Part shown: positions 4,298 through 29,676 of the stretch, in pieces
Position numbering within the stretch: position 1 is the first letter of the stretch
Layout: every line of letters begins with the position of its first letter
Assembly (NCBI GenBank): GCA_017463935.1
Contig: JAFUEM010000024.1
Coordinates: forward strand, 1 to 41,787
Source of the DNA: Kiritimatiellia bacterium
GTDB lineage: Bacteria > Verrucomicrobiota > Kiritimatiellia > RFP12 > UBA1067
Direction of reading: 5' to 3'
DNA: 41,787 nt
Notes under the pieces: generated by a model
The model's input: the letters and a program-made list of their open reading frames with translations, nothing else
What the model was told of the DNA's origin: nothing
Database searches by the model: none
Made by a program: the position numbers and the translations under genes

Positions 4298-4346
4298 CGA
4301 CTATCCCGCCCTGCGTCGAACGGATGAACGGGAAGGGAGGAACGAA

Positions 4347-7709: not shown

Positions 7710-7839
7710 TGAAGATTCCGAAGACAGAATCGAAGACTGTCGAGTTCAAAACCGCGTTCAGGCAGGAGGCGATTGCGTCTCAGGCGGCCTTTCTCAAATC
7801 GAAACACTCAAGACAAAAGAAAAGGAGCGGCAGCAATGA
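7709..7839 (+). pseudogene. Gene stub: AlbA_2/Schlafen-like DNA-binding protein head plus unrelated gene tail
   Basis: TAATG-coupled MKIPKTESKTVEFKTAFRQEAI (ExxxVEFK motif). A different frame ends ...ETLKTKEKERQQ* with an ATGA overlap onto the next gene. Confidence 0.5.
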
Positions 7840-8591: not shown

Positions 8592-8592
8592 T

Positions 8593-8640
8593 GCCGTTGG
8601 CAAGGTGTTGCGGCTTTTCGGCGCGAAGTGCAGGTGGTGA
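8593..8640 (+). repeat. Orphan copy of the glycosyltransferase 3'-tail repeat (AVGKVLRLFGAKCRW*)
   Basis: 44/48 nt identical to 28381-28428. Confidence 0.9.
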
Positions 8641-8666
8641 CGGCACATTCTGAAATATGCTATAAT
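8637..8666 (+). promoter_or_regulatory. Sigma70-type promoter with extended -10 (TGCTATAAT), leaderless, of AAA gene 1
   Basis: TATAAT at 8661-8666, 7 nt before ATG 8674. 8638-8666 is 25/29 identical to 28566-28594. Confidence 0.75.
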
Positions 8667-8673
8667 ATGCGGT

Positions 8674-10263
8674 ATGGAGAAGGTGGCGACAGACATCTAT
8701 TCGTTCGCGGAGCTGCGGAACGAGGGTTTCACATACGTCGACAAGACGCATGAACTTTACGCGATGGCGTCGGGAGACGTCGGCAAGCAGTTCTTCATCG
8801 CGCGTCCGCGTCGCTTCGGCAAGTCGCTCGCCGTCTCGACGCTGAAGGCGCTGTTCGAGGGGCGTCGCGAACTTTTCAAGGGTCTCGCCATCGAGCCCCT
8901 CTGGGACTGGTCGAAAAGGTGGCCCGTGCTGCATCTCGACATGGGGTCGATGCAGGCGCGAGACGTCGACGAGTTCAGAGAGCTGCTTGTCAGACAGCTG
9001 GAGAGAAGGGCGTCCGAGTTCGGCATTGAATGTCCGAAAGCGGACATCCCGTCGGAAATGTTCACGTCACTCATCGACGCGCTTGCCGCGAAGTCGCCGG
9101 ACGGACGGATGGTGCTTCTGGTGGACGAGTACGACAAGCCGCTTCTGGGGCATCTGATGAAGCCGGACGTGACGGATTTCCGTGACGAGCTGAAGGCGTT
9201 CTACTCCGTCATCAAGACTCTCGAGGCAAGGCAGCGCTTCACGTTCATCACGGGCGTGAGCAAGTTCTCGAAGGTGTCGATATTCTCCGATCTGAACAAC
9301 CTCAACGACTGGACGATGGATGCGACCGTCGCCACGCTCTTCGGCTATACGCACGAGGATGTCCTGAAGTATTTCCAGGGGCGCATACACGCGCTCGCCG
9401 AGGCGCACGGCCTTGCCGACGAGGAGGCGTTTGCGGAGATTGTCAAGTGGTATGACGGCTACAAGTTCCACCCGGCGGCACAGCCAGTCATCAACCCCGT
9501 CTCGCTCGGGCTCTGCTTTCAGAAGAACGACTTCGCCAACTACTGGTCGCAGACCGCGCTGCCGACGTTTCTGGTCGATATCCTGCGCAAGAAGCCGCTC
9601 GATTTCTCGTCCATCGACATATCCGAGTCGGAGCTCGGGAACTACGAGCCGACCAACCCGCGCGACACCACGCTCCTCTACCAGACCGGCTACCTGACGA
9701 TTTCCGGCTTTCGGAACATCGGCGGCTCGCGCCTCTATTCGCTCGACTTCCCGAACCGCGAAGTGCGCGAGTCGTTTCTGCACGATCTCGCGCCCGTGTA
9801 TTCCGGGCTTCGCGAGGACATTGCGGGCTCCGCGCAGATTGCGGCCATTACCGCGCTTTACGACCATGACGTGCCGAAGTTCCTGAAGGCGCTCAGAACG
9901 TTCTTTTCCAACATCCCGTACAGCCTCACGGACCGCCAGAACGAGCAGATGTGGCAGACGGTCGTGTACGTGATCCTGCGGCTCATCGGCGTGAGCGCCG
10001 AGGGCGAGGTGCAGACGAACGAAGGGCGCATCGACCTTGTCGCGAAGACGCCGGGCGACATCTACATCGTCGAATTCAAGCTGGACCGCCCGGCCGCCGA
10101 GGCGATGGAGCAGATCAAGGGCAGGGACTATGCCGGAAAATATGCCCTCGACGGTCGGCGCGTCACGCTTGTCGGCATTTCGTTCTCGTCGGAGAAGCGC
10201 ACCATCGTCGAGGAACTCGTCGAGGAGTTTCCGCAGGGCGGCAAGGTCAGAGGTGGGATGTGA
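8674..10263 (+). CDS. AAA-ATPase-like + PD-(D/E)XK nuclease (PDDEXK_9) protein, copy 1
   Basis: YVDKT, RPRRFGKS, LLVDEYDKP, FITGVSKF, WYDGY, LYQTGYLTI, FPNREV, GRIDL..YIVEFK. Confidence 0.92.
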   Translation: MEKVATDIYSFAELRNEGFTYVDKTHELYAMASGDVGKQFFIARPRRFGKSLAVSTLKALFEGRRELFKGLAIEPLWDWSKRWPVLHLDMGSMQARDVDEFRELLVRQLERRASEFGIECPKADIPSEMFTSLIDALAAKSPDGRMVLLVDEYDKPLLGHLMKPDVTDFRDELKAFYSVIKTLEARQRFTFITGVSKFSKVSIFSDLNNLNDWTMDATVATLFGYTHEDVLKYFQGRIHALAEAHGLADEEAFAEIVKWYDGYKFHPAAQPVINPVSLGLCFQKNDFANYWSQTALPTFLVDILRKKPLDFSSIDISESELGNYEPTNPRDTTLLYQTGYLTISGFRNIGGSRLYSLDFPNREVRESFLHDLAPVYSGLREDIAGSAQIAAITALYDHDVPKFLKALRTFFSNIPYSLTDRQNEQMWQTVVYVILRLIGVSAEGEVQTNEGRIDLVAKTPGDIYIVEFKLDRPAAEAMEQIKGRDYAGKYALDGRRVTLVGISFSSEKRTIVEELVEEFPQGGKVRGGM

Positions 10264-10373
10264 AGCGTGTGTGTATTCGGTCTTCGTCCGCGTCAGCGAA
10301 CTCGGGAATCGTCGAGAGCTGCGGCGGCAAGAAAACCGGCGGATGCTGCCGGAAGGAGGGCGAGGAACGATGA
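10260..10373 (+). other. 37-codon mini-ORF/stub coupled at both ends
   Basis: GTGA overlap with the AAA stop and ATGA overlap with ATG 10370. Reads VKRVCIRSS...KEGEER*. Confidence 0.4.
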
Positions 10374-13300
10374 AGAAAGCCGTGCCAGAAGACATGAAGG
10401 ATGCTCACGGCCTCTCGATAGATGTCTCCGTAGTCGTCCCGACCCATCGCCGTCATCAGTTTCTGAAGGATGCGCTTCAAAGCGTGTTCAAGCAGAAAGG
10501 CGTCGGTTTTGAGGTGATAGTCGTAAACGGCGTCGAGGACGACACGGATACGGATGCAGTCGTATCCGAATTCGACGTTGTCAAATACATACGGTCGAAA
10601 GAATATCTGTCCTGCAGTTCGAAGCGGGCCTTGGGGCTGTCGCTTGCAAAAGGCAGATACATCCATTTCATCGATGACGACGACTACATGATCGATGACG
10701 ATTTCTACAGGAAGGCCGTCGCCTTGCTGGATTCCAACGGCGAAATATCGTCGTTCTCCGGCAACTCCAGATTCCGGTTCGAAAGCACGGAAGGCGGAGA
10801 GCCGAAGTACAGCGATGCCGCGCCGCTGCCTTCGGGGCGCATCAACGGGCTTGAATACTTCAAAGTGCCAGCTGGAATGGGGCAAGCCCGACTTGATGGC
10901 GACGGTATTCCGCAAAGCGGCTCTTGTCGCCGACGATACCCTGCGGGAAGTCAACGATTCTTCGATCTATCTTCAATCCCTGCTGCACGGCGACGCATTC
11001 ATAATCGAAGATCGCGTTTGCGTTTACCGCAAGTGGGGCGGCTCCATCAGCCATGGTGGCGAAGGGAACGACTTGCGGCTGAAGATGGATACGGCCATTC
11101 AGAAAGAGCGCTTCTACCGTATCGTCGCCGGCAAAATCGCCGATGCCGGCAAGTGGTGGCGCGGAACGTTCGCCATGAACCTCAACTATTTCAGGCGTTC
11201 GACGCCCGATGTGCTGGAAATGGTGCTGTTCGCGGCGTGGGGCGTGCTCCATTCCCATGGAGATGGAGAGCTCGCGACCGAGTGCGCTGCGGCACTTGCC
11301 GCGATGCGGCCCGGAGCATTCGCGGGCCTGCCCAGCATGTCAAGTCGCCCCAGGATGTTGCTGCATCTCAGAGCGGCGCTTCACAAAATATTCCTCGGCG
11401 CCGCTGGAAACTATGAACCATATTATTCGCAGTTGATGGCGGACTTGGATGCCGAAATACGAAGAAACGGCCAAGTTTCCGATTTGGGCTTGGCGTATTT
11501 CACCGGCTTCCGCAATTTCGGCGATTTGCTCGGGTGCAGCCTTGTTGAATATCTTTGCGGCCTGCACATGTGCAACCAACCGCTTGGCGCGGCAGACATC
11601 GTGTCGGTCGGCTCGCTGCTTCAGGGTCTGTCCTGCCGCTTTGCCCAAGCGCAGGCGACCGCCGCCCCGCTTCACGTCTGGGGAAGCGGATTCCTCCATC
11701 CCGTCGAGCTTGGCAGGCCGCCTGTCAAGGGACGCGTGGTGTTTCACGCGGTCCGCGGGCGGAATACGCTCGCGCAGCTCCGGGAAACGGGACTCGTCGA
11801 TCCGGGCGAAGCTGTCGCCCTGGGCGACCCCGGCCTTTTTTACGCAGATCTGGTGCCAGGCGTCGAAAAGACGAAGAAAGAGTTCGACGTCGCCATCGTG
11901 CCGCACCATCTGGACAGCGAAGAGTTCAAAGCCGTCGCCGACGAACTGGCTTCGCAGGGTCTATCCGTAAAGTTCGTCGATGTCCGTCACGCCAACCCTA
12001 TGCAAGTCGTGCGCGACATCGCGGCATCGCGCAAGGTGCTGTCCTCTTCACTGCATGGAATCATCGTAGCCGACTCGCTCGGCATACCAAACGGGCGCAT
12101 TGTCGTGGATGGCTTTGAAACCGACGAAGAGAGGATGCGCAACGAAAGCGACTACAAATTTTCCGATTACTATTCCGCATTCGGCTTGGAGTGCCCAGAA
12201 CACATCAGCCTTTCAGAGTTGAAGCGCTCTCCCCGCAAGACCATTGAAAGCATGGTCGATTTCGTTCCGCAGGAAAAAGTGGAGGAGTGCAAGCGCAATT
12301 TGCTGGCCGCGTTTCCGTTCCCGAGGCGCGCGTCCGCCGCCGCCTTTCAAGATGTGCCGCAGTCGCCGGGCGTATCCGTAGTCGTCCCGATATGCAACAG
12401 CGAATACTATCTCCGGGAATGCTTGGATAGCGTGCTTTCCCAGGAGGAGTTCGCTTCGTTTGAATTGATATGCGTCGATGACGGCTCGACCGATTCTTCG
12501 GCCGCAATCGTGGAAGCCTACGCCGCAAGCGACCGCCGCGTCAGATTGCTCAGGCAAAAAAACGCCGGTCCCGGCGTCGCGCGCAATGCAGGGCTCGACG
12601 CCGCGCGCGGAGAATACATCTTCTTCCTCGACGCGGACGACCGCCTCTCCTGCGGCGAGGCGCTTCGCGAGGCGTACGAACAGGCGAAGGCGGACGACCT
12701 CGACGTCCTGCTCGCCGACGCCAACGACATGTCGGAAATCGGCAACGTGACGCGCAGCAACAAATATCTCTTGCGCGACCTACTTCCGGCTGCGCGCGTA
12801 TTCCCGCCGGAATCGCTAGGTGCAAATCTTTATATTGCGGCGACAATGTCGCCTTGGGCAAAACTGTTCCGGCGGCAATTCCTTGAAAAGAACGCGCTCA
12901 GGTTTCCGGCGCTCAAGCGGTCGGAGGATTTCCCGTTTGTACAGTTGGCAATGTCGCTCGCGCGTCGTATCGGCGCGTTGATCCGTACGGCGGTCGATCA
13001 CCGAATCGGCGTGGCGACGTCGCTGGAATCTACCAAGGACGAGACCCCGCTCGCATTCGCCGAGGCCGAACGGATATTTAGGGATTCCCTGTCCGAACAC
13101 GGCCTGCTGGACAAGTTCAGGGAGTCGGACAATGTCGCGCATGCTATCTATATTGCGTACAACCTGCACAGATTACGGCGTTTTTCTGATTTCAGGGCAG
13201 TTGCACAATATTGCGCGAAGGTATTCCCAGGTCTCAAGTTGAAAGGCGATGAAGCAAGTATATCTGCTTTTTCATATACGCATAAGCGCCTTGCGAATAT

Positions 13301-13937
13301 CGCTGCGACGGCGAATGACACGGATAGTTTGGCGGATGTCTTTGCCGAGATTAGAGCCATGGCGCGTGTAGAGGCCTTTCGCAATTCAAGCGAAGCGACC
13401 CTTGCGGCGAAGGACGCGGCGCTGGAGCAGCTGCGTGGCGCGACGGTGCAGCTCAGGGACAATATCGAGAAGCTGCGAGAAGCGATTGCGGCGAAGGACG
13501 CGGCGCTGGAGCAGCTGCGTGGCGCGACGGTGCAGCTCAGGGACAATATCGAAAAGCAGCGCGAGGCGATGGCCGCGAAAGATGCGTCCTTGGAAAAACA
13601 GCGCGAAACCACGGCGCAGCTCAGGGGCAATATCGAGAAGCTGCGCGAGGCGGTCAAAGTCAAAGATGAGGCGTTGGAACAACTGCGGGGAAACGCCAAA
13701 CGGCTGCGCGAGGCGAATGCCGCGAAAAACGCGGCGCTGGTGCAGTTGCGCGGTGCGACGGTACGGCTCCGCGCAGTGATTGAACAGCAGAGAAAGTCCA
13801 TGGCCGACAAAACCAAAGCGGTGATTGACCGCGACGCTGCAATTGAAAGATTGCGTTGCGATGTCGTCGAAAGGCAGCGTGCCGTGGACAGCTGTGCGCA
13901 AACAATCAGGCATTTAAAGGAAATCGTAGATCTATGA
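10370..13937 (+). pseudogene. Multidomain GT2 + polysaccharide pyruvyltransferase + GT2 + coiled coil, interrupted by a +1 frameshift near 10862-10864
   Basis: First frame: VSVVVPT..YIHFIDDDD up to LEYFK. Next frame continues CQLEWGKPD, then NFGDLL, VGSLL, AVRG, LGDPGL, SSSLHGIIVADSLGIP (pyruvyltransferase) and a second GT2 (CVDDGSTD, FLDADD). Confidence 0.8.
13402..13780 (+). repeat. 84-bp (28-aa, 4-heptad) tandem repeats encoding a coiled coil
   Basis: Units start at 13402, 13486, 13570, 13654, plus a partial unit. Consensus AAKDAALEQLRGATVQLRDNIEKLREAI. The first two units are nearly identical in DNA. Confidence 0.9.
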
Positions 13938-15349
13938 AACAGTTGAAGAAGCCATCCAGAAACGGAATGCCTGAAGGAACGCCGGATGTCACGGTCATTA
14001 CCGTTGTTTTCAACGCGTTCAAAGGCGCGGGCGAAACCGCGCTCAGGGAATGTCTGGATTCCGTCCAGAATCAGACAGATATTCGGATCGAGCATCTGAT
14101 CATCGACGGGGCGTCGAACGACGGCACGACCGAGTTCATCTCCGGATACGACAATCAAAACCATCCCATCGTGTTCATCTCTGAACCGGACAAGGGAATC
14201 TACGACGCGATGAACAAAGGCATCGCCCAGGCTTCCGGCGAATATGCGATTTTTCTCAATTCGGACGACTTTTTCCACAATCCCGCCGGGATGCGCGAAT
14301 CGGTCAAACGTCTTCGCGAGACGGGTTGTGATTTCTCGTATGCGCCTGTCGTCGTGCTGCGGGATGGGCAGGTTCGCGACGTGCTCCATTCGCACGCGGA
14401 CGGGCGGTTGATTTTCTGCTCGATGCCTTTCTCCCATCAATCAATGGTGTCGAAGACCGACGTCCTGAGAAAAATGAATAGCTACGATATTTCCTATCGC
14501 AGTTCGGCGGATTACGACTTGATTCTCCGGATGGTGCTGTCCGGATGCACGGCCTGCTACGTCGATTGCGCGTTTTCTACGTTTCGTGTCGGCGGCTTTT
14601 CGCTCCAGAACATCGATACGAGCCAGCGCGAATGTGCACTTATCTATTCGCGGTTGCTGCCGCCTGTCACCGGGTATCCGCTTTCGCCGGAAAAAGCGCA
14701 CAGGATGTTCGTCTGGAAGATCATCCCGCGCGAAACGAAGGTGGCGCTGATCGACCGCTACACCCGCTCGTTCAGAAAGTGGCAGCCGCCGCTCGGGAAA
14801 ATCACGCCGCCTGAGAACGCCGAAACGCATGTGCTCGCGACGCGCTTCACGCGTTCCGCTGCCGACGACTGGGTTGACAGGCAGATTCCCGTCTGGCAGT
14901 TTGACGAATGCAAAAAAGTGTTTGCCGGCGAGCCGGCGCAGGATATCGTCTGGGCAAGCGATTTCTGGCATTTGTATTCATCGTATCTTTATGCAAAAAA
15001 CGGCGTCCGATGCGGCAAGAATCTCGGGATTCTCTTCCGCATCCCCGAAAATCTCAGGGGCGTGCGTACGCGTTTGCGCATTGCGTTTTCGCCGTTCTTC
15101 CGTCCGGACATGCCCAGACAGAGGTTTCGCTTCGCGGTAAACGGAAAGGTTTTCGCGGAAGTATCGGTAAAACGCTCTGTGTCGGTTGTTTGTGAGCTCC
15201 CGCTCCCGCAGGATGTCGCGGAGGATGGCTTTCTCGGCATAGAGATAGATAGCGGAGACGCCACGATCGCAGCATATTTCGGAAAGTCGATGGATTTGAG
15301 ACCTCAGGGATTTTTGTTCAGTTATGCAAAAGTGGAGGTCGCAGAATGA
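13934..15349 (+). CDS. Glycosyltransferase family 2 (WcaE-like) with extra C-terminal beta domain
   Basis: VTVITVVFN, IIDGASNDGT, SEPDKGIYDAMNKG, FLNSDD, HQS, ADYDL. ATGA-coupled. Confidence 0.9.
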   Translation: MKQLKKPSRNGMPEGTPDVTVITVVFNAFKGAGETALRECLDSVQNQTDIRIEHLIIDGASNDGTTEFISGYDNQNHPIVFISEPDKGIYDAMNKGIAQASGEYAIFLNSDDFFHNPAGMRESVKRLRETGCDFSYAPVVVLRDGQVRDVLHSHADGRLIFCSMPFSHQSMVSKTDVLRKMNSYDISYRSSADYDLILRMVLSGCTACYVDCAFSTFRVGGFSLQNIDTSQRECALIYSRLLPPVTGYPLSPEKAHRMFVWKIIPRETKVALIDRYTRSFRKWQPPLGKITPPENAETHVLATRFTRSAADDWVDRQIPVWQFDECKKVFAGEPAQDIVWASDFWHLYSSYLYAKNGVRCGKNLGILFRIPENLRGVRTRLRIAFSPFFRPDMPRQRFRFAVNGKVFAEVSVKRSVSVVCELPLPQDVAEDGFLGIEIDSGDATIAAYFGKSMDLRPQGFLFSYAKVEVAE

Positions 15350-17307
15350 AAACCTTGCTTGACGTTTCCAATGTAATCCAGAATCGCTTGACGCTGGCGA
15401 TCGTTTCGGCTTATGCGCGCAGGGGGGGGGGGGAGCTTCCTGAGCTTTATGCAAATACGGCATCGGTCGCGCAAATCCGCAAGTTCCTCGCCGAAAAGAC
15501 CCCCTGCACGAGGTGGCGGTTCTTTGTTGCACATGTCGATCCTTATGCCGATATGGTTGCCTGGCTTGAAAAAGGTCTTGCGTTCAAGTCGGCGAAAGGC
15601 GGTCTCGCGCTTCGCGGTTCCGCCAGATTTTTAAGCTTTTGCTGCCGTGTCCTTCTTCCATTGTTCACGGTGCTCAGCAAGCGCTCGGCGAAAAAGAATT
15701 CGTTGCTTGCGAAGTATGACGAGTTTTTGACTGTTTATCGCCCCGCACCTGCCTCTATCGTCCAGAGCGGACTCAAAATCGTTTCCGTCCTGCCGAATCC
15801 GGCGGCGATGAAGTTCCCGGAGAAATTCTTCAAGGATTCCAACTACGACTGGATGCGGAACCGTTTTCGCAGGCTTACGGACAAGGATGTCGTAATTCCC
15901 GCCCCCGACGCATGCAAGGAGGACATGCTTGTCTATGGGCCCGGTCTTCGCGAAGAGAACATTTTGAATGTCGCGCGCCCCGGCTCGGACGTCGATACAT
16001 GGGCGGATGGCATCGTTGCCGGGAAGCCGACAGGAGGGCGAGGCTACTACATCAACAACTGGCACAACAACGCCCCTCGCTCCGAGCTGCCTCGACCGCT
16101 TCTCGTCGGCGATATCGCCGTCATGCGGTGCCGCTTCCGCCTGGCGAAATCCTACAACGTCCCGGTCGATGGATTTGGCACGGCGTTGAAGTTGGGCGAT
16201 CCCCGCTTTGCCGCGCAGTTGAAGTCTTTCCTCCGCGCACATCCCTACAAATATACGTCGGCGGTTTTCATGGTCGGCAACCAGCTTGCGCAAAAGCCTG
16301 CGCAGGACATGCGGATTCTCAAGGAGCTTCAGGAGCTTGCCGGATGCGAGGCCATGCTTTGCTCGCCGTTTCCTGCGCACATGCAGGAGAAGAAGTATGT
16401 CGGCGCGGTAAACGCGGAGATGGCGGCCGGCCAGCGCGACTACATGGCGATGCTGGCAACGCGGCTCGGGTGGCGTTTCGTCGACGTGTTCCAGTACGTG
16501 ATGGAAGAGGCGCATACCGACGAAAGCACGGCGTTCTGCGCCGGGCGTTCGCATGTCGGCATGTCGCATTCGCTTCGCTCTCCCGACAAGACGAGCGCGC
16601 AGCAGATCAACGACGACGCGACCGCGATCCTGGCGATGGCGCTGGGGCTGAAGGAAGACGACGGCCCCGCCCAGAAGAGCGTCTATGAAGAACTTTTCAA
16701 GGCCGGCAAGATCGCGCCCGGCGAGGCCAAGCTCGAGTTCGAGGAGTGGGAAACGTTGACCATCAACGAGAACAGGCACTGCCGCTATCTGTTTGTCGGC
16801 GGCTGCCTCTTGCGCGACTGTTGCGCGGCGAGCGCCAAGCTGAAGTCGAAGCCTACGTCCGAGGTGTATGCGTCAAGCCACTCGATAGCCGATCCGGCAT
16901 ACATCGAGGGCCTGAAGTGCATGATGGAGGGCAAGACTTACGATGTCGCCTACTTCAATTTCGGTGCGCATTTCTTCCTGCATACGCGCGAAGAGTTCAC
17001 AAAGGCGTTCGACGAGATTCTTTCGATCCTGGCGGCGCATGCGCCGAAAGTCGTGCTGCTGACGCTGCCGGAGCTTGCCTCGACGGGCGAGTCGGATCGC
17101 GAGGAGTGCGACTTCAAGAACGAGAAGATCCGTTGGGCGAACGACCAGCTGCTCACGGTTTACTCGAAGAAGTACCCGGTCGTCCCCGTCCACCAGATGG
17201 CGCTCAAGTACGCCGCGCACCGCTGCGACTACTTCCATTTCGAGCGAAGCGTGTACGACGCGCTTTTCAAGGAGATCCAGGAGCAGATCGGCGAACCCGC
17301 CGAATAA
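15346..17307 (+). CDS. Hypothetical protein with degenerate SGNH-like domain(s) and a 5' poly-G tract
   Basis: C-terminal YLFVGGCL..YFNFGAH..DYFHF resembles SGNH blocks I/III/V. ATGA-coupled, 653 aa open frame. Confidence 0.6.
   Translation: MKTLLDVSNVIQNRLTLAIVSAYARRGGGELPELYANTASVAQIRKFLAEKTPCTRWRFFVAHVDPYADMVAWLEKGLAFKSAKGGLALRGSARFLSFCCRVLLPLFTVLSKRSAKKNSLLAKYDEFLTVYRPAPASIVQSGLKIVSVLPNPAAMKFPEKFFKDSNYDWMRNRFRRLTDKDVVIPAPDACKEDMLVYGPGLREENILNVARPGSDVDTWADGIVAGKPTGGRGYYINNWHNNAPRSELPRPLLVGDIAVMRCRFRLAKSYNVPVDGFGTALKLGDPRFAAQLKSFLRAHPYKYTSAVFMVGNQLAQKPAQDMRILKELQELAGCEAMLCSPFPAHMQEKKYVGAVNAEMAAGQRDYMAMLATRLGWRFVDVFQYVMEEAHTDESTAFCAGRSHVGMSHSLRSPDKTSAQQINDDATAILAMALGLKEDDGPAQKSVYEELFKAGKIAPGEAKLEFEEWETLTINENRHCRYLFVGGCLLRDCCAASAKLKSKPTSEVYASSHSIADPAYIEGLKCMMEGKTYDVAYFNFGAHFFLHTREEFTKAFDEILSILAAHAPKVVLLTLPELASTGESDREECDFKNEKIRWANDQLLTVYSKKYPVVPVHQMALKYAAHRCDYFHFERSVYDALFKEIQEQIGEPAE
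15422..15433 (+). repeat. G12 homopolymer (candidate phase-variation tract, currently in frame)
   Basis: a-GGGGGGGGGGGG-agc at codons ~26-30 of 15346..17307. Confidence 0.85.
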
Positions 17308-17343
17308 GTGACGACATGACAGGAGCTGAAAGGAAGTGGCGCC

Positions 17344-21487: not shown

Positions 21488-21512
21488 GGTGGTGAGATGG
21501 TTTGGCGGTGAG
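21473..21512 (+). repeat. Five imperfect 8-bp tandem repeats (ATGGTGAG)
   Basis: atggtgag atggtgag gtggtgag atggtttg gcggtgag. Confidence 0.75.
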
Positions 21513-21521
21513 GTATGGACG

Positions 21522-21578
21522 GGAGGGTCACGCTTGTCGTGACCTTTTTCCTGCGGTCGCGACAAACGCGCCCCTTCC
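21522..21578. repeat. REP-like palindrome doublet in inverted orientation; first copy also terminator-like
   Basis: GGAGGGTCACG-cttgt-CGTGACC (21522-21544, then TTTTT) and an inverted degenerate copy ggtcgcgacaaacgcgccccttcc (21555-21578). Confidence 0.7.
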
Positions 21579-21608
21579 GCTGTCGACCTGCCACTAACCA
21601 CTTAAAAA

Positions 21609-21617
21609 TGCTATAAT
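21609..21617 (+). promoter_or_regulatory. Extended -10 (TGCTATAAT), leaderless promoter of AAA gene 2
   Basis: TATAAT at 21612-21617, 7 nt before ATG 21625. Confidence 0.75.
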
Positions 21618-21624
21618 ATACGCC

Positions 21625-23217
21625 ATGGAGAAGTTGGCGACAGACATCTATTCGTTCGAGCGGCTTCGCGAGAGCGGTTTTACGTACGTTGACAAGACGC
21701 GCGAACTCTACGCGATGGCGTCGGGTGACGTAGGCGTACAGTTTTTCATCGCGCGTCCGCGGCGCTTCGGCAAATCGCTCGCCGTATCGACGTTGAAGGC
21801 GCTTTTCGAAGGGCGGCGCGAACTTTTCAAGGGCCTGGCGATCGAGCCGCTCTGGGATTGGTCGAAGAAATGGCCTGTGCTGCATCTCGACATGGGGACG
21901 ATGCAGTATGATACCGTAGAAGAATTAGACCAGTCCTTGAGAGATTATTTTTGCCTAATGGCATCGGAGGTGGGTGTTTCGCTCGACCGGACGAAATTGA
22001 TGCCCGACATGTTTCGCGATATGATACGCGAGTTGGCGGCGAAATCCTTCGACGGTCGATGCGTAGTCCTGATCGATGAATACGACAAGCCGCTCTTGAA
22101 AGCGCTCGATACCACAGATGTCTGCAAATTCCGAGACTACCTGAAACCATTCTACGGCGTTGTGAAATACGAGGGTGAGAAACAGCGCTTCACGTTTATC
22201 ACGGGCGTGAGCAAGTTTTCGAAGGTGTCGATATTTTCGGATTTGAACAATCTGAAGGACTGGACGATGTACGCGAGCGTCGCGACGCTTTTCGGCTACA
22301 CGCACGAGGAAGTGCGCAAGTATTTCCCTGGACGCATACATACGCTCGCCGAGGCGAACTCGCTCACGGACGAAGAGGCGTTCGCCGAAATAATCAAGTG
22401 GTACGACGGCTATAAGTTCCATCCTTCTGCCAAACCTGTCATCAATCCGGTTTCGCTCGGACTTTGTTTCGAAAACAACGATTTCGCCAACTACTGGTCG
22501 AAGACGGCGGTGCCTACGTTTTTGATCGCCATCCTCGCGAAGCATCCACTCGATTTTTCGAGCGTGAACGTGAGCGACGACCGCCTGGAGGCGTACGAGC
22601 CGGAGAACCCCGACGTCACGACGCTTCTCTACCAGACAGGCTATTTGACGATCAAGGCTGCGCACCGCCTGAACGACATGACGGTTTACGACCTCGGCTT
22701 CCCGAACAGGGAAGTTGCAAACTCGTTCACTTCGAGACTTGCGCCGGCATATGTCGATATGGAGCCGCCATCCGCAGAGTCTGCGCAGATAGCGGCAGCA
22801 CGTGCGCTGTTGGCGCACGACGTCGCGAAGTTCATAAAGGCGCTCAAGACGTTTTTCGCGAATATTCCGTACGACCTGACGGACAGGCAGAACGAGCAGA
22901 CGTGGCAGGCGATCGTGTATGTGGTGCTGAAGGCCGTCGGCGTGGGCGTGCAGTCGGAAGTGAAGACGAACGACGGGCGCATCGACATGGTGGTCGATCT
23001 CCCCGGCGACATCTACATCGTCGAATTCAAGCTCGACAAGCCTGCGTCAGAGGCGATCGAGCAGATCAAGGGCAGGGACTACGCCGGGAAGTACGCGCTT
23101 TCCGGCAAGCGCGTCACGCTGATCGGCATCTCCTTCTCGTCTGAAAAGCGCACCATCGTCGAGGAACTCGTCGAGGAGTTTCCGCAGGGCGACAAGGTCA
23201 GAGGTGGTGAGGCGTGA
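21625..23217 (+). CDS. AAA-ATPase-like + PD-(D/E)XK nuclease protein, copy 2
   Basis: Same motifs as 8674..10263 and clearly paralogous, 12,951 bp apart. Confidence 0.92.
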   Translation: MEKLATDIYSFERLRESGFTYVDKTRELYAMASGDVGVQFFIARPRRFGKSLAVSTLKALFEGRRELFKGLAIEPLWDWSKKWPVLHLDMGTMQYDTVEELDQSLRDYFCLMASEVGVSLDRTKLMPDMFRDMIRELAAKSFDGRCVVLIDEYDKPLLKALDTTDVCKFRDYLKPFYGVVKYEGEKQRFTFITGVSKFSKVSIFSDLNNLKDWTMYASVATLFGYTHEEVRKYFPGRIHTLAEANSLTDEEAFAEIIKWYDGYKFHPSAKPVINPVSLGLCFENNDFANYWSKTAVPTFLIAILAKHPLDFSSVNVSDDRLEAYEPENPDVTTLLYQTGYLTIKAAHRLNDMTVYDLGFPNREVANSFTSRLAPAYVDMEPPSAESAQIAAARALLAHDVAKFIKALKTFFANIPYDLTDRQNEQTWQAIVYVVLKAVGVGVQSEVKTNDGRIDMVVDLPGDIYIVEFKLDKPASEAIEQIKGRDYAGKYALSGKRVTLIGISFSSEKRTIVEELVEEFPQGDKVRGGEA

Positions 23218-25520
23218 AAGATATTGCGCGACCAGACATCAAACCGGCATTTGCCGAGCGGAACATTCCCGTTGCGCTGGCGACGGACGAGAATTATCTG
23301 CCGTATCTCAAAGTCACGATAAACTCGGCGATTGCCAGCTCTCCCGGAAGCAATCTGGACATCATCGTCCTGCACGCGGGCATCCCGGAAGATGCAATTC
23401 TGGATTTCACCGCCAGATACGCGGGAACCGGCAATGCGTCCGTGAGATTCGTAGATATTTCGGAGGAACTGGAAACGTCCGGGCTTTCGGACTACAAACA
23501 GACGGCCAGGCTGCCGCTGTCGTCGTGCTATCGCCTGCTGCTCCCCCGCATCCTTCCCGCATACGGCAAGATCGTGTATATAGACGTGGACGTCGCCGTG
23601 TGCCGCGACCTCGGCGAGCTGTATGCGACGGACGTTGGCGACAACTGGTTTGCGGCCGCGAAAGACGTAGTCTACACCACAAAGCCCGAATATGTTTCCT
23701 GGGCGGGGAAGTGGGGATTCACGGAATGGGACGGCTACGTCAACACCGGCGTCCTGGTCATGAATCTGGAGCGTTTCCGCCGCGAACCGGTCTTTGACAG
23801 ACTCAAGGAGATCGTTTTCGAAGCGGCTAAATGGAACTGCGCCCAGGACGCCCTGAACTTCGTCTGCAAAGGGGCGATCGCGCCGCTCGATCCGCGCTGG
23901 AACGTGCAGCTCGGCGACTACTGCATCTCGAAGCAAATCGCCTTGACCGGTGAAGAGATGTGGATCGCGCATTTTACAGGAGGAGAAAAGCCTTGGAAAT
24001 ATCCGGTGCATCGTTATTCACACCTCTGGTGGCGACATGTCGATTGTTCCGACGGCTTTTCTGTCGTATTGTGGCGGAGCGCGTTTGATGTTGCCGATAC
24101 AGTCGTCAGCCAGGGTGAAGGAATAGCCGTTTCTGTAATCGTTCCGGTTTACAACGCCGAAACATATCTCGTCCAAATGCTTGTCTCGCTGGCGGCGCAG
24201 ACGCTTCGCAACATTGAAGTGATTTGCGTCGACGATGGATCAACCGATGGTTCTTGCGCGATATGCGAAAGATTCGCGGCGGCGGACGCTCGGTTCAAGA
24301 TTTTGCATCAGACGAATTCCGGGGCCGCCGTTGCACGCAATAGAGGCATTGGCGAGGCTCGGGGAAGATGGCTCTTCTTTGCGGACGCCGATGACTTCTG
24401 CCGTCCAGACATGCTGGCAGACATGGTTGCCGAGGGCAAGGCCAGGAACGCCGATATTGTCGTAGCGGGGAGCTTTCGCTTTGATGCCCGCCAGATTGGC
24501 GAGTGCTGCAAGGTCTGCATTCCTGCAAAGTATGTCGAAAAAGAGCAGCCGGTGTCTTGCCATACCGATGGCGTGAATGTCTTCTCTGGCCTTGGCTTCG
24601 CTCCGTGGAACAAGCTGTACAAATCAGATTTTGTCCATGCCTGCGGCATCCGCTATCACCAGACTCCGCCCAACGACGACGTATTCTTCGTGCTGGCGAC
24701 ACTGATTCTCGCCCGGCGAATTGCCCTGATGTGCAAAGAGTATTATTATTACAGGGCGTTTCTTGAGACAAGCCAGATGGGGCAGGCTGACAAACACCCT
24801 GCGAACTTCCTGGCGTCGCTTCTCGAAGTGCGTGACATTGTCGCCACGCAAAAAGCTATTATTCAACAGGATTTCTTCGTCGTGGCCGTCAAATCCTGCT
24901 TCGATAACCTCATGATGCGAAAGACACATGAAGGAATCGTAAATACATACGCCGCAATCCGGGACGGAGGGTTGGAGGCATTAAGGCTTCCTTTCGCGGA
25001 TGAGACATGCGCGGATATCGGGATATGTCGTAAAGCATTCGCCCTCACTCTTGCGAAAGCGGATGTCCTTATTGTGCTTTCAACATACTGCCGCGAACAG
25101 CATCTTTCCGAGTTGTCCTCTCTACTCACGAGAGATGTGGCTCTCCTCAAGCTTAAGGGGTGGCTGGCGGAGAAAACGGCACAATACGAAGCGGCTGACA
25201 GCCGAATCAAGGTTCTCCGCGAGCAGTCTGCCAATGCCGGCAAACAGGCAATTGCGCGGAATGAGGCGCATAAGCGCGATGTCGAGCGCCTGAAGACGGA
25301 TGTGCTCAAGTTGAGGGGATGGCTGGCGGAGAAGACGGAACAATACAAGGCGGCTGACAGCAAAATCAAGGCTCTCAACGAGCTGCATTCCAAAATGCTT
25401 GCCCAGAAGGAAGCATATAGGCGTGACGTCGACAACCTGAAAGGCCGGATAGCCGCGCTGGACTCCGCGTTAGCGAAAAGCAACCGAATAATTGCAGAGA
25501 TTTCTAAATCAATTGGATAA
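23214..25520 (+). CDS. GT8 + GT2 fusion glycosyltransferase with coiled-coil C-terminus
   Basis: TDENY, YIDVDV, VNTGVLVMN, AQDALN, HFTGGEKPW, then VIVPVYN, VDDGSTD, FADADD. A 53-aa duplication lies at 25146/25305. GTGA-coupled to AAA gene 2. Confidence 0.9.
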   Translation: MKDIARPDIKPAFAERNIPVALATDENYLPYLKVTINSAIASSPGSNLDIIVLHAGIPEDAILDFTARYAGTGNASVRFVDISEELETSGLSDYKQTARLPLSSCYRLLLPRILPAYGKIVYIDVDVAVCRDLGELYATDVGDNWFAAAKDVVYTTKPEYVSWAGKWGFTEWDGYVNTGVLVMNLERFRREPVFDRLKEIVFEAAKWNCAQDALNFVCKGAIAPLDPRWNVQLGDYCISKQIALTGEEMWIAHFTGGEKPWKYPVHRYSHLWWRHVDCSDGFSVVLWRSAFDVADTVVSQGEGIAVSVIVPVYNAETYLVQMLVSLAAQTLRNIEVICVDDGSTDGSCAICERFAAADARFKILHQTNSGAAVARNRGIGEARGRWLFFADADDFCRPDMLADMVAEGKARNADIVVAGSFRFDARQIGECCKVCIPAKYVEKEQPVSCHTDGVNVFSGLGFAPWNKLYKSDFVHACGIRYHQTPPNDDVFFVLATLILARRIALMCKEYYYYRAFLETSQMGQADKHPANFLASLLEVRDIVATQKAIIQQDFFVVAVKSCFDNLMMRKTHEGIVNTYAAIRDGGLEALRLPFADETCADIGICRKAFALTLAKADVLIVLSTYCREQHLSELSSLLTRDVALLKLKGWLAEKTAQYEAADSRIKVLREQSANAGKQAIARNEAHKRDVERLKTDVLKLRGWLAEKTEQYKAADSKIKALNELHSKMLAQKEAYRRDVDNLKGRIAALDSALAKSNRIIAEISKSIG

Positions 25521-25530
25521 AAGGGCGACA

Positions 25531-25697
25531 ATGCTTTTTACATCTCTAGAGTTCCTGTTTTTGTTCCTGCCGGTATGTCTGGCGTAGCGGCCTATTACCT
25601 TATTGAACTTCCCGGCGCCAAGCTTCTTGGGGCGATTTACGGTATGCTGAATATTGATGGAAATACAAAAAAGGAAAAAAAGGAAGATGCACGGTAA
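25531..25697 (+). pseudogene. Stub: MBOAT (AlgI/DltB-like) head plus acyltransferase-3-like tail
   Basis: MLFTSLEFLFLFLPVCLA* (25531-25587). Another frame reads VAAYYLIELPGAKLLG...EDAR* and overlaps ATG 25687. Confidence 0.6.
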
Positions 25698-28428
25698 TCC
25701 TACATCTACGGAGGATTCCTCTCCACTGGTATCAGTAGTGCTTCCGGTGTTCAATGTGGAGCACTACATCGTCGAATGCCTTGATTCGATAGCGGCGCAG
25801 GATTATCCGAATTTCGAGGTCATCGCGGTCGACGACGGCTCTAGCGACGGGTCGCTGCGGCTGCTGGAAGAGTATGCCTCTTCGCACAGCGCAATGGCAG
25901 TCCTTCACCAGGAAAACTCTGGTGCCGGCGTTGCGCGCAACAAGGGCATTGCGGCAGCGAAGGGCAAGTACGTGCTGTTTGTGGATCCCGACGACGCAAT
26001 CGAACCTTGCGCACTTCGCGAACTGGTGGAAGTGGCGGAGTCCAAGTCGGCGGAGATAGTGCTGTTCAGCGCCGCGCGCTATGATGCCGAACTGAAGACT
26101 CTGGTAACGCTGGCGCACCAGCCTAGACAAGCGATCGACCTCCCGGAGGTGTTTGCGGGCAGTGACATGGCGTCGAATATCTATACAACATTTTCTGATG
26201 GACCGGCTCCGTGGAATAAGCTATTTCTCCGGCAGTTTATAACCAACCATGGATTATCCTTCCAGTCGCTGCCACGCGTAAACGACCTAAGCTTCTCGTA
26301 TTCCGCCCTAGCCTTGGCGAAGCGTATCTGCGTTATTGACAAGGCATACTATAGATATCGGACAAACCGCAAAGGGAGTTCCCAGAATACAACCGACCGC
26401 GATCCATCCCCCGTTTGTGCCGCATACCGCCGCCTCAAGGAAACGCTTTCTGGCAAGTGCGTGTTCGCTGATTTTTCAGACAGCTTCTACAAGGCGTTCT
26501 ACAGCTCCTGCTCGTACACGTTTCGCCAAATGAAGCATCTGACAACGGCAAGGCGGCTGTTCGATTTGCTTCATTCCGAGTCGATGGCCTCCATCGCTGG
26601 TGCAAAGCTCGGCCGAGACGCATTCGCGACCGACAAGGAGTTTGCCGCATACGCGGGCTTTTGGGAAGAACGATCGCCCTATCGTCTGATGCTGACCCCA
26701 AGACAACGCAATTTCGCCGACGATATGCCGGCCTTGCCGAAGAGCGGCAATGGCAAGGTGTTGGGCATAATGTGCGGGTCCTTGCGCCCTGGTGGCATTG
26801 AGCGCGCCGTGACACATCTAGTGCCGATGTTCGTTAGAAACGGATTTGACGTCGTGATCATGACTTCGGCTCCGCCGACTGACATGGAGTATGTGCTTCC
26901 CGACGGTTGCATAAGGTTGACGATTGGCCGCGATTCCGAAGACAATTCCCGGTACGATCGCATAAGAGCTGCAATACTCAAGTACGGCATCGGTATTGTA
27001 ATTGCCCACGAATACTACATGTTGACCATCGGCAAGGACATAACCGCAATACACTCTGCCGGAGCATATGCCGTCGTGCATCACCACAGCGTTTTCTCGA
27101 ACATGTACGTGAGGGATAACCGCGAACGCTCTCTTCCGCAACTGCTCAGGGCATACAGGACGGCGGACGCAATGGTGACGCTTTCCGATATCGACGCGGA
27201 TTTTTTTGGCATGATGGGCTGCAAGACCCTCAGAATTACGGATCCCGTGCCGGACATTCCTCATCCGAAGTCAAAGGCATCTTCCGGGCACACCGTGATA
27301 TGGGCGGCGCGGTTTGTGGACGGCAAACGCCCATTGGATGCCGTCAGGATATTCGAGCTTGTGCTCCAGCAGGTTGCGGACGCAAAACTGGTGATGCTGG
27401 GCGATGGACATGCGGAGCAAAAAAAGCTTGTGGATGATTATCTTTCCACCCGCCCGGATCTCAGCAGGGCGGTTGAGAGAAAAGGCCATCAACCTGATGT
27501 TTTCGCTTTCGAGCGGGAGGCAGATGTCTTCCTTACGACAACCAAGTTTGACGGATTCTCGCTCTCGGTGGTAGAGGCCAAGGCAATGGGCCTGCCGGTC
27601 GTCACGTATTCCATGCCATATCTTGAGACGGTGAAGCCTGGGACTGGCGTACTGTCGGTTCCCCAGGGCGATGTGGCTGCGGCTGCCGACGCCATCGTGC
27701 GGATTTTCAACGACGAAGCGCTACGAGCGAGGTTGTCTGGCGAGTCGAGGGCATCATACGAGCATTTCGCGGCGTTCGACCAGTGGGCGGCGTATTCGCA
27801 GCTGTTCGGCGCACTCAGCGGAACAAGTGTGCTCCCCGAACGAGATGTCAAATGCGAATCGGCTACGATTATCGTAAATACTCTCATAGAGCATGTTGAC
27901 TTGGCCATGGGGCGCGTCCTGGAAAAATCCGCCAAGATGGCATCCCCGAATCTATGGTGCAAAAAAGACGAAAGAAATCCGAAGACAGCAGAAAAGAGAA
28001 TAAAGAGTCCTAAAGTTTCGATCATCGTGCCTGTGTACAATGCGGCACCCTATCTGTTGGAATGTCTGGATTCACTGGTCGACCAACTTGACGGCAATGT
28101 CGAGGTAATCTGCATCGATGATGGATCGACGGATGATTCCGCGCGCATCATCGCAGCGTATGCGGAGAAGCGGACGAATGTGCGGCTTCTCCAGCAGGCG
28201 AGAGCGGAAGTTTCGGCGAGAGCCGCGCAGAAGAAGATCGACGCGCTCCGCAGAGAGATATCAAGGCTGCGCAATTCCGAGTCGTATCGCGTCGGGATGG
28301 TTGTCACGTGGCCGGCGCGGAAGGCGTGGGGAGGCGTGAAATGCCTGCGCGAGAACGGCGTCAAGTACACCGTCAAGCACGCCGTTGGCAAGGTGTTGCG
28401 GCTTTTTGGCTCGACGTGCAAGTGGTGA
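25687..28428 (+). CDS. GT2 + GT4 fusion plus truncated second GT2 and tail module
   Basis: GT2 (VVLPVFN, VDDGSSD, FVDPDD), GT-B (GGIERA, KFDGFSLSVVEAKAMGLPVV), then a GT2 fragment cut after VRLLQQ and joined to the NSESYRVG..TWPARK tail. Confidence 0.87.
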   Translation: MHGNPTSTEDSSPLVSVVLPVFNVEHYIVECLDSIAAQDYPNFEVIAVDDGSSDGSLRLLEEYASSHSAMAVLHQENSGAGVARNKGIAAAKGKYVLFVDPDDAIEPCALRELVEVAESKSAEIVLFSAARYDAELKTLVTLAHQPRQAIDLPEVFAGSDMASNIYTTFSDGPAPWNKLFLRQFITNHGLSFQSLPRVNDLSFSYSALALAKRICVIDKAYYRYRTNRKGSSQNTTDRDPSPVCAAYRRLKETLSGKCVFADFSDSFYKAFYSSCSYTFRQMKHLTTARRLFDLLHSESMASIAGAKLGRDAFATDKEFAAYAGFWEERSPYRLMLTPRQRNFADDMPALPKSGNGKVLGIMCGSLRPGGIERAVTHLVPMFVRNGFDVVIMTSAPPTDMEYVLPDGCIRLTIGRDSEDNSRYDRIRAAILKYGIGIVIAHEYYMLTIGKDITAIHSAGAYAVVHHHSVFSNMYVRDNRERSLPQLLRAYRTADAMVTLSDIDADFFGMMGCKTLRITDPVPDIPHPKSKASSGHTVIWAARFVDGKRPLDAVRIFELVLQQVADAKLVMLGDGHAEQKKLVDDYLSTRPDLSRAVERKGHQPDVFAFEREADVFLTTTKFDGFSLSVVEAKAMGLPVVTYSMPYLETVKPGTGVLSVPQGDVAAAADAIVRIFNDEALRARLSGESRASYEHFAAFDQWAAYSQLFGALSGTSVLPERDVKCESATIIVNTLIEHVDLAMGRVLEKSAKMASPNLWCKKDERNPKTAEKRIKSPKVSIIVPVYNAAPYLLECLDSLVDQLDGNVEVICIDDGSTDDSARIIAAYAEKRTNVRLLQQARAEVSARAAQKKIDALRREISRLRNSESYRVGMVVTWPARKAWGGVKCLRENGVKYTVKHAVGKVLRLFGSTCKW
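28303..28428 (+). repeat. Full copy of the GT 3'-tail repeat
   Basis: Matches 29575-29665 (83/91 nt) and 8593-8640 (44/48). 28301-28322 matches 21441-21462 (22/22). Confidence 0.9.
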
Positions 28429-28482
28429 CGCCGAGCATAAAATGGGTGCGCCGTCTCAAATCAAGGCCGGCGAACTTTAGCT

Positions 28483-28563
28483 TTCGGGAATGAGATGCCT
28501 TAATTTTCGGGAGTGAAATGCTTTAATCTTCGGGAGTAGAAAGATTTATTTTTAGGGAATGCC
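28483..28563 (+). repeat. 3.5 imperfect 23-bp tandem repeats (TTCGGGARTG...TTAAT) upstream of a promoter
   Basis: Units start at 28483, 28506, 28529, 28552. Confidence 0.75.
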
Positions 28564-28564
28564 A

Positions 28565-28594
28565 TTGACGGCACATGGCGATATATGCTATAAT
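28565..28594 (+). promoter_or_regulatory. Sigma70 promoter TTGACG-N18-TATAAT with extended TG
   Basis: Near-consensus -35 and -10, followed by AAGGA and ATG 28629. Confidence 0.8.
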
Positions 28595-28628
28595 TACGCA
28601 CAATTTTTTGCAAAAAGGACTTATTGAG

Positions 28629-29554
28629 ATGAGGGCGGAATACAAGAAACGTGTTGTAGCAGGATGCGGATGCGTCCGATGAGCCTGTGGGAGTCGGGAG
28701 AATCGACCGGAGAAATTTCTCTTTCAGCGCTTTTTGATGGTGCTGGCGAGGTGTCGGGACGATCGTCAATTGGCGTTGATGAAATCGCCCATCTTGTCTG
28801 CCGTGGAGGATGGCCGCAAGCGGTGCTTGCCAAGACGCCTCGGGCGGCGTATATGAAGTCTTCCAGTTATGTCGATGAAGTCGTGCACGAAGACGTTCAC
28901 AGGGTTGATGGCGTTGAGCGCAATCCCGATCGTGTGAGGAATCTGCTGAAATCGCTGGCCAGAAACATCTCGACCATGGCTACAAATGAAACCATCTTGC
29001 AAGATTTAAAAGCCAACGATTCGTCCATCAGCGAAAAGACGCTTTCTTCATACTTGAACGCACTGCGAAAGATATTTCTGGTGGAAGATGTTCCAGCTTG
29101 GTCGCCGTCACTCAAGTCCAGGTTGGCGATTCGTTCGGCGATGAAACGGCAGTTTGTCGATCCTTCGGTCGCGACGGCCGTTTTGGGCGCGACGCCCAGG
29201 CGATTGCTGAATGACTTTCGCTCTTTCGGGTCTTTCTTCGAGTCGCTCTGCGTAAGAGATGTGCGCGTATACGCCCAGACGCTTGATGGCGAGGTGCGGC
29301 ACTATCGCGATCAGACCGGGCTTGAAGCCGATATGATTGTTGCATTGAAAGATGGGCGATGGGGTGCGGTCGAGGTAAAGCTGGGCGCAGGCGACATTGA
29401 CAGCGCGGCGGTGGGACTCAAGAAACTGAGTGCAAAGGTCGATGTCGGCAGGATGGGGCATCCTTCATTTCTCATGATATTGACCGGCACGGATCTTGGC
29501 TACACGCGGGACGATGGCGTTGTTGTCTGCCCGCTGGGTTGCTTGAGGCCATGA
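28629..29554 (+). pseudogene. AAA_14/DUF4143 ATP-binding protein with the P-loop domain internally deleted
   Basis: Head MRAEYKKRVV (28629) joined out of frame to RMRPMSLWESGES..GGWP..FVDPS..FESL..YRDQTGLEADMI..AVEVKLG. No Walker A/B. Confidence 0.8.
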
Positions 29555-29676
29555 AATATTCTGCGACATTCTCCGTCACGTGGCCGGTTCGGAAGGCGTG
29601 GGGCGGGATGAAATGCCTGCGCGAGAACGGCGTCAAGTACACCGTCAAGCACGTCGTCGGAAAGGAAGGGATATGA
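29551..29676 (+). pseudogene. 41-aa collapsed glycosyltransferase (head MKYSATFS plus tail repeat)
   Basis: In-frame MKYSATFS-VTWPVRKAWGGMKCLRENGVKYTVKHVVGKEGI*, with ATGA overlaps at both ends. Confidence 0.75.

Follow-up and report, generated by a model that had tools for sequence, protein, structure and literature searches.

Gene clusters for O-antigen and capsule synthesis are mosaics that recombine at conserved segments and gather the remnants of selfish genes. The DNA analysed here, a 41,787-nucleotide stretch from a Kiritimatiellia bacterium (GCA_017463935.1, contig JAFUEM010000024.1; hereafter the window), carries a locus for the synthesis and export of a surface glycan. The 41.8-kb window is an entire contig of a metagenome-assembled genome of 354 contigs that is 85% complete. 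It contains Bac_transf, ABC2_membrane and ABC_tran genes together with glycosyltransferase (GT) genes on one strand (Pfam), the composition of an ABC-transporter-dependent surface-glycan locus. Two elements of this locus are considered here: a repeated stretch of DNA encoding the C-terminus of GT proteins, called the tail, which is present in four copies (A to D), and three genes of ATPase type (ATPase1, ATPase2 and gene 3), each preceded by a tail. The preliminary description of this DNA had proposed that tail, promoter and ATPase/nuclease gene form a cassette-shuffling system. Our analysis suggests that the glycan locus is probably an ordinary mosaic whose variable GT part harbours orphan ATPase genes, without any dedicated shuffling machinery.

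Compared to O-antigen and capsule clusters, the locus showed the same general plan. A variable, G+C-poorer GT region has conserved genes for export and initiation at its flanks, gene content varies between related species, junctions fall at conserved stretches or gene borders, and gene relics are present. The G+C fraction was 0.50-0.56 in the variable blocks at 23-29 kb, compared with 0.62-0.70 in the flanks, and the locus reads as a mosaic of at least two GT blocks and a G+C-richer right part. However, it differs from these clusters in two respects. First, the shared stretch is the coding end of GT genes and does not belong to flanking housekeeping genes. Second, the lodged genes are orphan ATPases and not insertion sequences.

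Integrons possess an IntI integrase, an attI site and attC-bounded cassettes that are mostly promoterless and are served by a common promoter. The window resembles them in that gene units separated by a repeated sequence lie on one strand. Unlike integrons, it yielded no integrase: a Pfam scan of 29 plus-strand open reading frames (ORFs) across the window returned no recombinase or transposase family, in agreement with what had been stated before. Furthermore, the repeats are coding sequence without hairpin potential. DNA folds of tail A, tail C (both strands) and tail D gave z values of -0.30, -0.24, -0.25 and +1.39 relative to shuffled sequences, and no attC-like hairpin was found among them. 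Finally, the ATPase units have TGCTATAAT boxes of their own, and a terminator-like hairpin is present at 21520-21552. The integron-like diversification that had been suggested is thus not borne out.

In shufflons and invertible-promoter phase variation, inverted repeats flank a segment and a site-specific recombinase is present. Repeat analysis of the window reported no inverted repeats at the tails or at the blocks, and the Pfam scan of the plus-strand ORFs gave no recombinase. A further known process, homology-facilitated illegitimate recombination, combines one homologous anchor with one illegitimate join, and is taken up below with the junction between tails B and C.

The tail repeat

Alignments confirmed the four tail copies, including the one described behind gene 3 (85-92%), and tail DNA was found at these four sites only in its own assembly. 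All four lie on the plus strand and were delimited by repeat and frame comparison. Tail C (28283-28430), which ends the GT gene starting at 25654, is the sole full tail. Tail A (8593-8642), a headless relic, retains the last 15 codons of a GT tail with their stop, in a frame different from that of the gene before it, and matches 28381-28430 at 92% (E 9e-12). Tail B (21423-21469, 85% to 28283-28329) is the truncated C-terminus of the GT gene at 20432, which has a homologue with a full tail in the related genome G024. Tail D (29551-29676; 29575-29665 matches 28303-28393 at 91%, E 1.4e-28) is a headless relic inside a 41-codon ORF, the ATG of which overlaps the stop of gene 3 and the TGA of which overlaps the ATG of the GT gene behind it. 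In G024, the counterpart of tail D has many amino-acid changes and has lost a conserved Cys; because of these changes, both are read as relics. Directly behind the truncated tail B lies a short G/T-rich repeat (21470-21500), where a contig from an independent gut sample (X9, see below) is 16 nucleotides shorter.

The tail encodes a conserved C-terminal GT peptide of about 48 residues, located behind a coiled coil. This peptide is near-invariant across nine species, and differences per site by codon position were 0.28, 0.26 and 0.42; the higher variability of third positions suggests selection on the tail protein. Among 117 genomes of the genus, 20 had a match to the peptide, with two matches in only four of them (including this genome and G024) and one in the others. 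The tail-bearing open frames range from 349 to 1034 amino acids, and their bodies are mutually unlike. Weaker versions of the motif end the GT genes at 3287-4297 and 29673-31115. These comparisons show the tail to be a conserved protein module, normally single per genome, with the multiple copies here as the exception; it may serve for docking or membrane binding. According to one rival explanation, the likeness of the tails reflects protein-level conservation only, the relics arose by random deletion, and tail homology played no part in rearrangement. The strong conservation of the peptide and the high variability of third codon positions are in line with this explanation, which the position of the junctions (below) nevertheless renders unlikely.

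ATPase-type genes of two families

ATPase1 (8674-10263, plus strand) and ATPase2 (21625-23217, plus strand) are DUF1703-type genes, each with an AAA-ATPase_like domain (PF09820; 173.6 and 173.9 bits, respectively) and a PDDEXK_9 domain (PF08011; 66.7 and 70.9 bits). They share 71% identity in protein and 74.6% in DNA, and their nearest relatives differ, which argues against duplication in place. In contrast, gene 3 (28629-29554, plus strand; identified by Pfam, PADLOC and comparison with G024) matched DUF4143 only, with PF09820 and PF08011 not matched (Pfam). Its G024 counterpart is an intact AAA_14 and DUF4143 protein of 446 amino acids. Relative to G024, 358 nucleotides are missing between 28659 and 28660, the P-loop domain is gone and the frame is shifted; as read from the sequence by hand, with no tool output, the frame from ATG 28629 ends after 17 codons. 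The remainder is about 97% identical to the intact gene. The window copy therefore lacks the order of AAA_14 followed by DUF4143 and is a broken member of this type, whereas an undeleted form was seen in a 13.8-kb contig of X5, an independent goat-gut run (1437 letters versus 1079 in the window).

The product of gene 3 matched the PADLOC defence candidate PDC-S01 (AAA_14/DUF4143) with an E value of 6.8e-42, and its G024 counterpart has both domains of that candidate. Unlike PDC-S01, the window copy is without the P-loop part, and it is a putative defence gene by its sequence match. PADLOC returned no match for the DUF1703 proteins. Collectively, these comparisons indicate that the three genes, which had been presented as one ATPase/nuclease cassette repeated three times, stem from two unrelated families and different lineages.

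The DUF1703 genes proved to be widely scattered. Of 61 related genomes, 28 contained homologues; the largest number of matches in a single genome was 24, and fragments at contig ends were numerous. The genome under study had only two full DUF1703 genes. DNA homology among the copies is confined to about 8650-10242, starting at the -10 box and ending shortly ahead of the stop. The Pfam families near related copies are diverse (glycoside hydrolases, SecDF, transporters and others). A GT family followed a DUF1703 gene at one of 41 loci, and none preceded it among the 25 families listed for 38 loci, where neighbours were picked as the longest ORF near the gene and spurious frames are possible. Only two of 58 related loci lie in a similar glycan locus, namely L088 of G021, with the order ABC, ATPase and GT8, and L141, which has an internally deleted copy. 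Tandem arrays exist elsewhere, with four genes in a row on a Vicinamibacteria chromosome (L133 4395-10739) and two in another assembled genome (L107 161-3539). Contigs labelled Faecalibacterium or Gemmiger (L115-L119, L137) carry DUF1703 genes 55-58% identical to ATPase1, which could be due to transfer between phyla or to a binning error.

In Cardinium, DUF1703 genes were described as an expanded, recombining and horizontally spread family of unknown role (PMC6387759). The genes studied here are alike in their two-domain architecture, their multiple copies in relatives and their fragments at contig ends. They differ in that this genome yielded only two copies, which share a single glycan locus, and in that a conserved promoter box placed for a leaderless transcript is seen here, of which the available portion of that article makes no mention. 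A review table, in the part of the article available, counts PF09820 among the ATPase domains of defence systems (PMC10952713). In the available literature on the family (PF09820/PF08011), supplements not covered, no link to glycan loci was found.

These distributions bear directly on the idea that tail, promoter and ATPase/nuclease gene mark the boundary of mobile GT cassettes, with the repeats as anchors and the nuclease perhaps cutting, in an integron-like manner. If so, tail and ATPase gene should recur together. Yet the tail was absent from all 58 related DUF1703 loci and from all 24 loci of relatives examined, and an ATPase gene lay directly behind only one of ten other-species tails (that of G024), a count that leaves out G125 and G126, the contigs of which end 86-309 nucleotides past the tail. 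It is true that an ATPase gene heads and a tail ends each GT block here, that two junctions with G024 fall in tails, that the DUF4143 unit stands between two tails in two species, and that a tail-plus-promoter block precedes different genes in G024 and here. The D...ExK nuclease motif is also kept in ATPase1 and ATPase2 (a by-eye reading of the translations, with no tool score). However, the tail is normally single per genome, the ATPase genes belong to two families and different lineages, one of them is broken and another is missing from a sample contig, the sequence order across tails A, B and C is unchanged in contigs from three samples, and neither an integrase (plus-strand Pfam scan) nor a hairpin above shuffled controls was found. 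The boundary idea is therefore highly improbable, and an active role of the nuclease in shuffling is not supported.

Junctions between species and among gut samples

The G024 locus serves for comparison. It contains, in this order, the ABC gene, GT8-GT2-coiled coil, homologues of the genes at 13856 and 15346, the homologue of GT 20432 with a full tail, the intact DUF4143 gene, a second headless tail, a promoter and a large multi-GT gene. The order tail-DUF4143-tail is common to both species. Six junctions separate the window from G024. Four of these coincide with borders of genes or domains or interrupt a gene: one at 23214, the start codon of GT8; one where the GT8 and GT2 domains meet (about 24044 joined to 12567); one around an extra CotH gene (17307/20525); and the 358-nucleotide gap within the DUF4143 gene. 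The other two are inside tails. In one, 21462 is joined to 28283, with about 40 nucleotides common to both sides and colinearity on through 28659; in the other, tail D breaks off at 29665, a point past which the second G024 tail continues.

The explanation by protein conservation alone would be well served by the four junctions outside tails, and also by the changes within species, which are microhomology deletions or indels, none of them tail-to-tail. It is less easily reconciled with the two others, since tails make up roughly 1-2% of the region (an estimate from repeat coordinates) yet hold two of the six junctions. Moreover, identity to G024 is about 97% in the DUF4143 unit and about 72-88% in its flanks, and tails bound this high-identity tract: its right edge is where tail D begins and its left edge is near the tail C stop. 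Headless tail ends recur in G024 and G069, the latter with a 24-nucleotide relic that matches tail A at 23 of 24 positions. The roughly 40 nucleotides common to both sides of the B/C junction point in the same direction. At the G069 locus (L078), a second tail-end relic and a spacer like 28431-28565 were noted 60-200 nucleotides behind the tail, followed by ORFs without a Pfam family and then FeoB, with no ATPase gene there.

The B/C junction, where about 40 nucleotides of tail are shared on one side and the sequence of the other side is unrelated, would fit homology-facilitated illegitimate recombination. Unlike the known process, it is only a pattern in finished genomes, of which we infer the direction. 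A G021-like block (ATPase, GT8-GT2 and tail-bearing GT) may have entered a resident tail, or the reverse deletion may have occurred in the G024 line; a deletion between two tails in that line fits equally. More generally, past recombination and deletion, with some junctions in or beside the tail, would have left the truncated tail B and the headless relics A and D. The tail may have helped as one of the few DNA stretches common to otherwise unlike GT genes, and recombination of imported with resident DNA would then have used it as one homologous anchor. The ATPase genes may have inserted themselves at gene junctions or may have come in together with imported blocks, as passengers.

Variation within the species was followed in Logan contigs from four independent gut runs (X5, X6, X7 and X9), placed on 8500-28499 at a likeness of at least 90%, uncovered parts not being counted as absence. 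First, an X9 contig joins 8721 to 10356, so that ATPase1 (8722-10355) is absent; the joint has 5 nucleotides of microhomology and keeps the promoter and the ribosome-binding site of the next GT gene. X9 is otherwise colinear from 8500 to about 24006. Second, the X5 contig matches the window from precisely 23214 onwards, after 3 kb of unlike sequence, and spans tail C and the longer DUF4143 form up to the next tail. Third, in an X6 contig tail A and the promoter are 77 letters apart, compared with 8 in the window, and an X7 contig joins 23971 to 12561, giving a G024-like domain order. Contigs of three samples crossed tail A (X6, X9), tail B with ATPase2 (X9) and tail C (X5) colinearly. No tail-to-tail junction was seen in the contigs of the four runs over 8500-28499, although contigs drop rare variants and rare tail-to-tail events may escape.

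Three candidate interpretations of the contig data were set aside. An assembly artefact was rejected, as independent contigs span tails A, B and C and G024 shares the tail-DUF4143-tail order. Apparent ATPase1/ATPase2 recombinants (X9 joints 8826 to 22056 and 22601 to 9666) were not used; the first has a shorter side of 24 letters, and an origin from other organisms is common. Joints and loose ends near 14100-14230 and 20740-20780 were likewise not used, since they fall in the conserved GT2 motif and stem from many organisms.

Taken together, the comparisons suggest that the tails have served as occasional junctions of ordinary recombination. The claim that they act as homology anchors is partly supported and holds in a weak, evolutionary sense, in view of the two G024 junctions within them, but not as a general rule, with four junctions elsewhere and colinear sample contigs. 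Likewise, gene content does switch at some tails between species, as the G024 comparison shows, but no tail-to-tail junction was seen in the sample contigs. As for the ATPase genes, they are scattered, self-contained units whose presence varies; the locus can do without them, and they are decaying.

Several observations weigh against an ordinary mosaic with lodged genes. As the cassette proposal predicts, every GT block of the locus has an ATPase gene at its start and a tail at its end. The promoter block behind tail A resembles that behind tail C, which ties tails to ATPase promoters beyond chance insertion. Both DUF1703 genes found in this genome sit in one locus, and a DUF1703 gene or remnant is present in the homologous locus of two further species (L088/G021 and L141), so that these genes may have some affinity for glycan loci. 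Moreover, the direction of each event (insertion here versus deletion in the relative) is one that we infer, the neighbour counts may include the spurious frames mentioned above, and further copies may be unassembled in an assembly that is 85% complete. There is a slim chance that tail and promoter form a portable anchor for swapping whole GT blocks between Kiritimatiellae species, with the DUF1703 and DUF4143 genes riding along or triggering the exchange.

Promoters, neighbouring genes and implications

The earlier observation that each ATPase-type gene has its own promoter stands, with TGCTATAAT at 8658, 21609 and 28586, one ahead of each gene. The motif TGNTATAAT occurs four times in the window compared with 0.12 expected, the fourth copy being at 3259 ahead of a GT8 gene. 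The extended -10 promoter of ATPase1 occupies 8638-8666 and the box of ATPase2 21609-21617 (both plus strand); each box ends 7 nucleotides 5' of the start codon (ATG 8674 and ATG 21625), a spacing that suggests a leaderless mRNA. The stretch ahead of the DUF4143 gene (28431-28628, plus strand), conserved in G024, comprises a spacer with short direct repeats, a promoter of the form TTGACG...TGCTATAAT (28566-28594) and the leader of that gene. Among relatives, an exact TATAAT begins 13-16 nucleotides 5' of the start codon in 14 of 24 DUF1703 copies, some of them only 33-40% identical, so that the promoter belongs to the gene unit. Similar boxes lie 0-8 nucleotides 5' of GT2 starts behind the tails of G031, G109, G017 and G024.

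In most DUF1703 genes the -10 box ends 7-10 nucleotides before the start (window 8658-8673 and 21609-21624; loci L018-L045), and GT2 boxes 0-8 nucleotides before the start were noted at loci L076, L077, L079 and L080. These placements suggest that leaderless transcripts may be common in this clade. Tail A and its promoter form one continuous alignment with the last part of the second G024 tail and the promoter of that tail, which in G024 heads a GT gene.

Start/stop coupling to the next ORF, reported for all three genes, was found in full only for ATPase2, the stop of which overlaps the GTG start of the following GT8 gene (GTGA, 23214-23217). ATPase1 is uncoupled, being followed by about 106 nucleotides and then by GGAGG and ATG 10370, and gene 3 overlaps only the 41-codon relic ORF made of tail D. 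A terminator-like G+C hairpin followed by a T run (21520-21552, plus strand; fold of 21423-21560) lies between GT 20432 and the ATPase2 promoter. The ATPase promoters may now read into the GT genes behind them. It could be argued that the locus has a use for the ATPase genes and keeps them for it, either as promoter donors for the GT block behind or as regulators. This is very unlikely, as their coding parts are being lost, GT8 in G024 and G109 is coupled to the ABC gene without an intervening ATPase gene, and most DUF1703 copies adjoin unrelated genes. The features that would speak for it are the hairpin 5' of the ATPase2 promoter, the overlap of ATPase2 with the GT8 start, the X9 deletion that removes ATPase1 while sparing the promoter and the next ribosome-binding site, and a weak match of the DUF4143 protein to a winged-helix regulator domain, under the Pfam cut-off.

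Long ORFs of the window are nearly all on the plus strand, as are the genes described below, and loci related to it are labelled as Kiritimatiellae from animal guts. The conserved left flank comprises the initiating sugar transferase (Bac_transf, 4553-5944), the ABC-2 permease (ABC2_membrane, 5987-6754) and the glycan-export ABC ATPase (ABC_tran, 6681-7709), all assigned by Pfam, the last also by junction sequences and synteny. In G024 and G109, the ABC ATPase stop overlaps the GTG start of the GT8 gene. A short UDP-glucose-dehydrogenase-like gene (7836-8591, 251-amino-acid form; Pfam) follows in the window, and homology ends at 8591 in L076 and L080. Its stop is identical in G031 and G017, which argues against its truncation by the event that put tail A alongside. 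A small ORF (7709-7954) without a Pfam match begins at the ABC ATPase stop, and in L088 about 270 nucleotides of non-GT sequence (7571-7846) separate GT8 from the ATPase gene. The two stretches may be remnants of further accessory genes; for ORF 7709-7954 this was a guess without Pfam support and was dropped.

GT families 2, 4 and 8 are represented in the window by about a dozen genes (Pfam). The multi-domain GT behind ATPase1 (10370-13937; GT2, pyruvyl-transferase-like, GT2 and coiled coil; Pfam) has its own ribosome-binding site and starts at ATG 10370. It is split over two frames near 10862 in this assembly, and the X9 contig, two letters longer there, would give one ORF of about 1190 amino acids. 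Contig C177 of the same assembly (5430 nucleotides), which duplicates 10003-15432 at 99.98% and is a redundant contig with no second arrangement, aligned gap-free across 10862 and appears to share the shorter form. The split is either a true strain frameshift or an assembly error. The GT2 gene ending in tail B spans 20432-21487 (Pfam), a longest-ORF coordinate with the true start probably later. The gene at 23214-25520 encodes GT8, GT2 and a coiled coil (Pfam), and a homologous GT8 part follows the ABC ATPase in G024, G109 and G125. The gene at 25654-28428 encodes a GT2 and GT4 protein (Pfam) fused in frame to a 67-residue GT2 stub (residues 785-851) and tail C. In G031, a separate GT of 699 residues begins with a sequence 97% identical to the stub; its residues 69-627 are missing here. 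With the stub joined in frame to the tail, this gene has lost its body in the window by deletion. The GT2 and coiled-coil gene at 29673-31115 is the first of the G+C-richer right part (Pfam, G+C).

Further genes of the locus encode a CotH/Flg_new protein, LicD proteins, a cytidylyltransferase and a large beta-helix/Flg_new protein (Pfam). In-frame tandem repeats were noted at 37628-39377 (237/243-nucleotide units in the Flg_new part of the 1624-residue beta-helix protein), and at 13404-13837 and 25139-25393 (84- and 159-nucleotide units in GT coiled-coil regions). Contig C232 has two 98% matches to 4315-4521 spaced about 800 nucleotides wider than in the window, which hints at another arrangement or an insertion in the spacer 5' of the initiating transferase.

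What had been proposed as a new diversification system is thus probably the ordinary, well-documented mosaic evolution of a surface-glycan locus, seen in a little-studied gut phylum. Were tail and promoter indeed a portable anchor, they would represent a recombinase-free diversification of the surface glycan. Three by-products of the analysis are possibly useful. One is the conserved extended -10 box, placed for leaderless transcripts. Another is the tail peptide, a conserved C-terminal GT module, as yet without a Pfam family, that marks usually one enzyme per genome. Third, for the orphan ATPase genes of the DUF1703 and DUF4143 families, the locus offers evidence for gain and loss within species.

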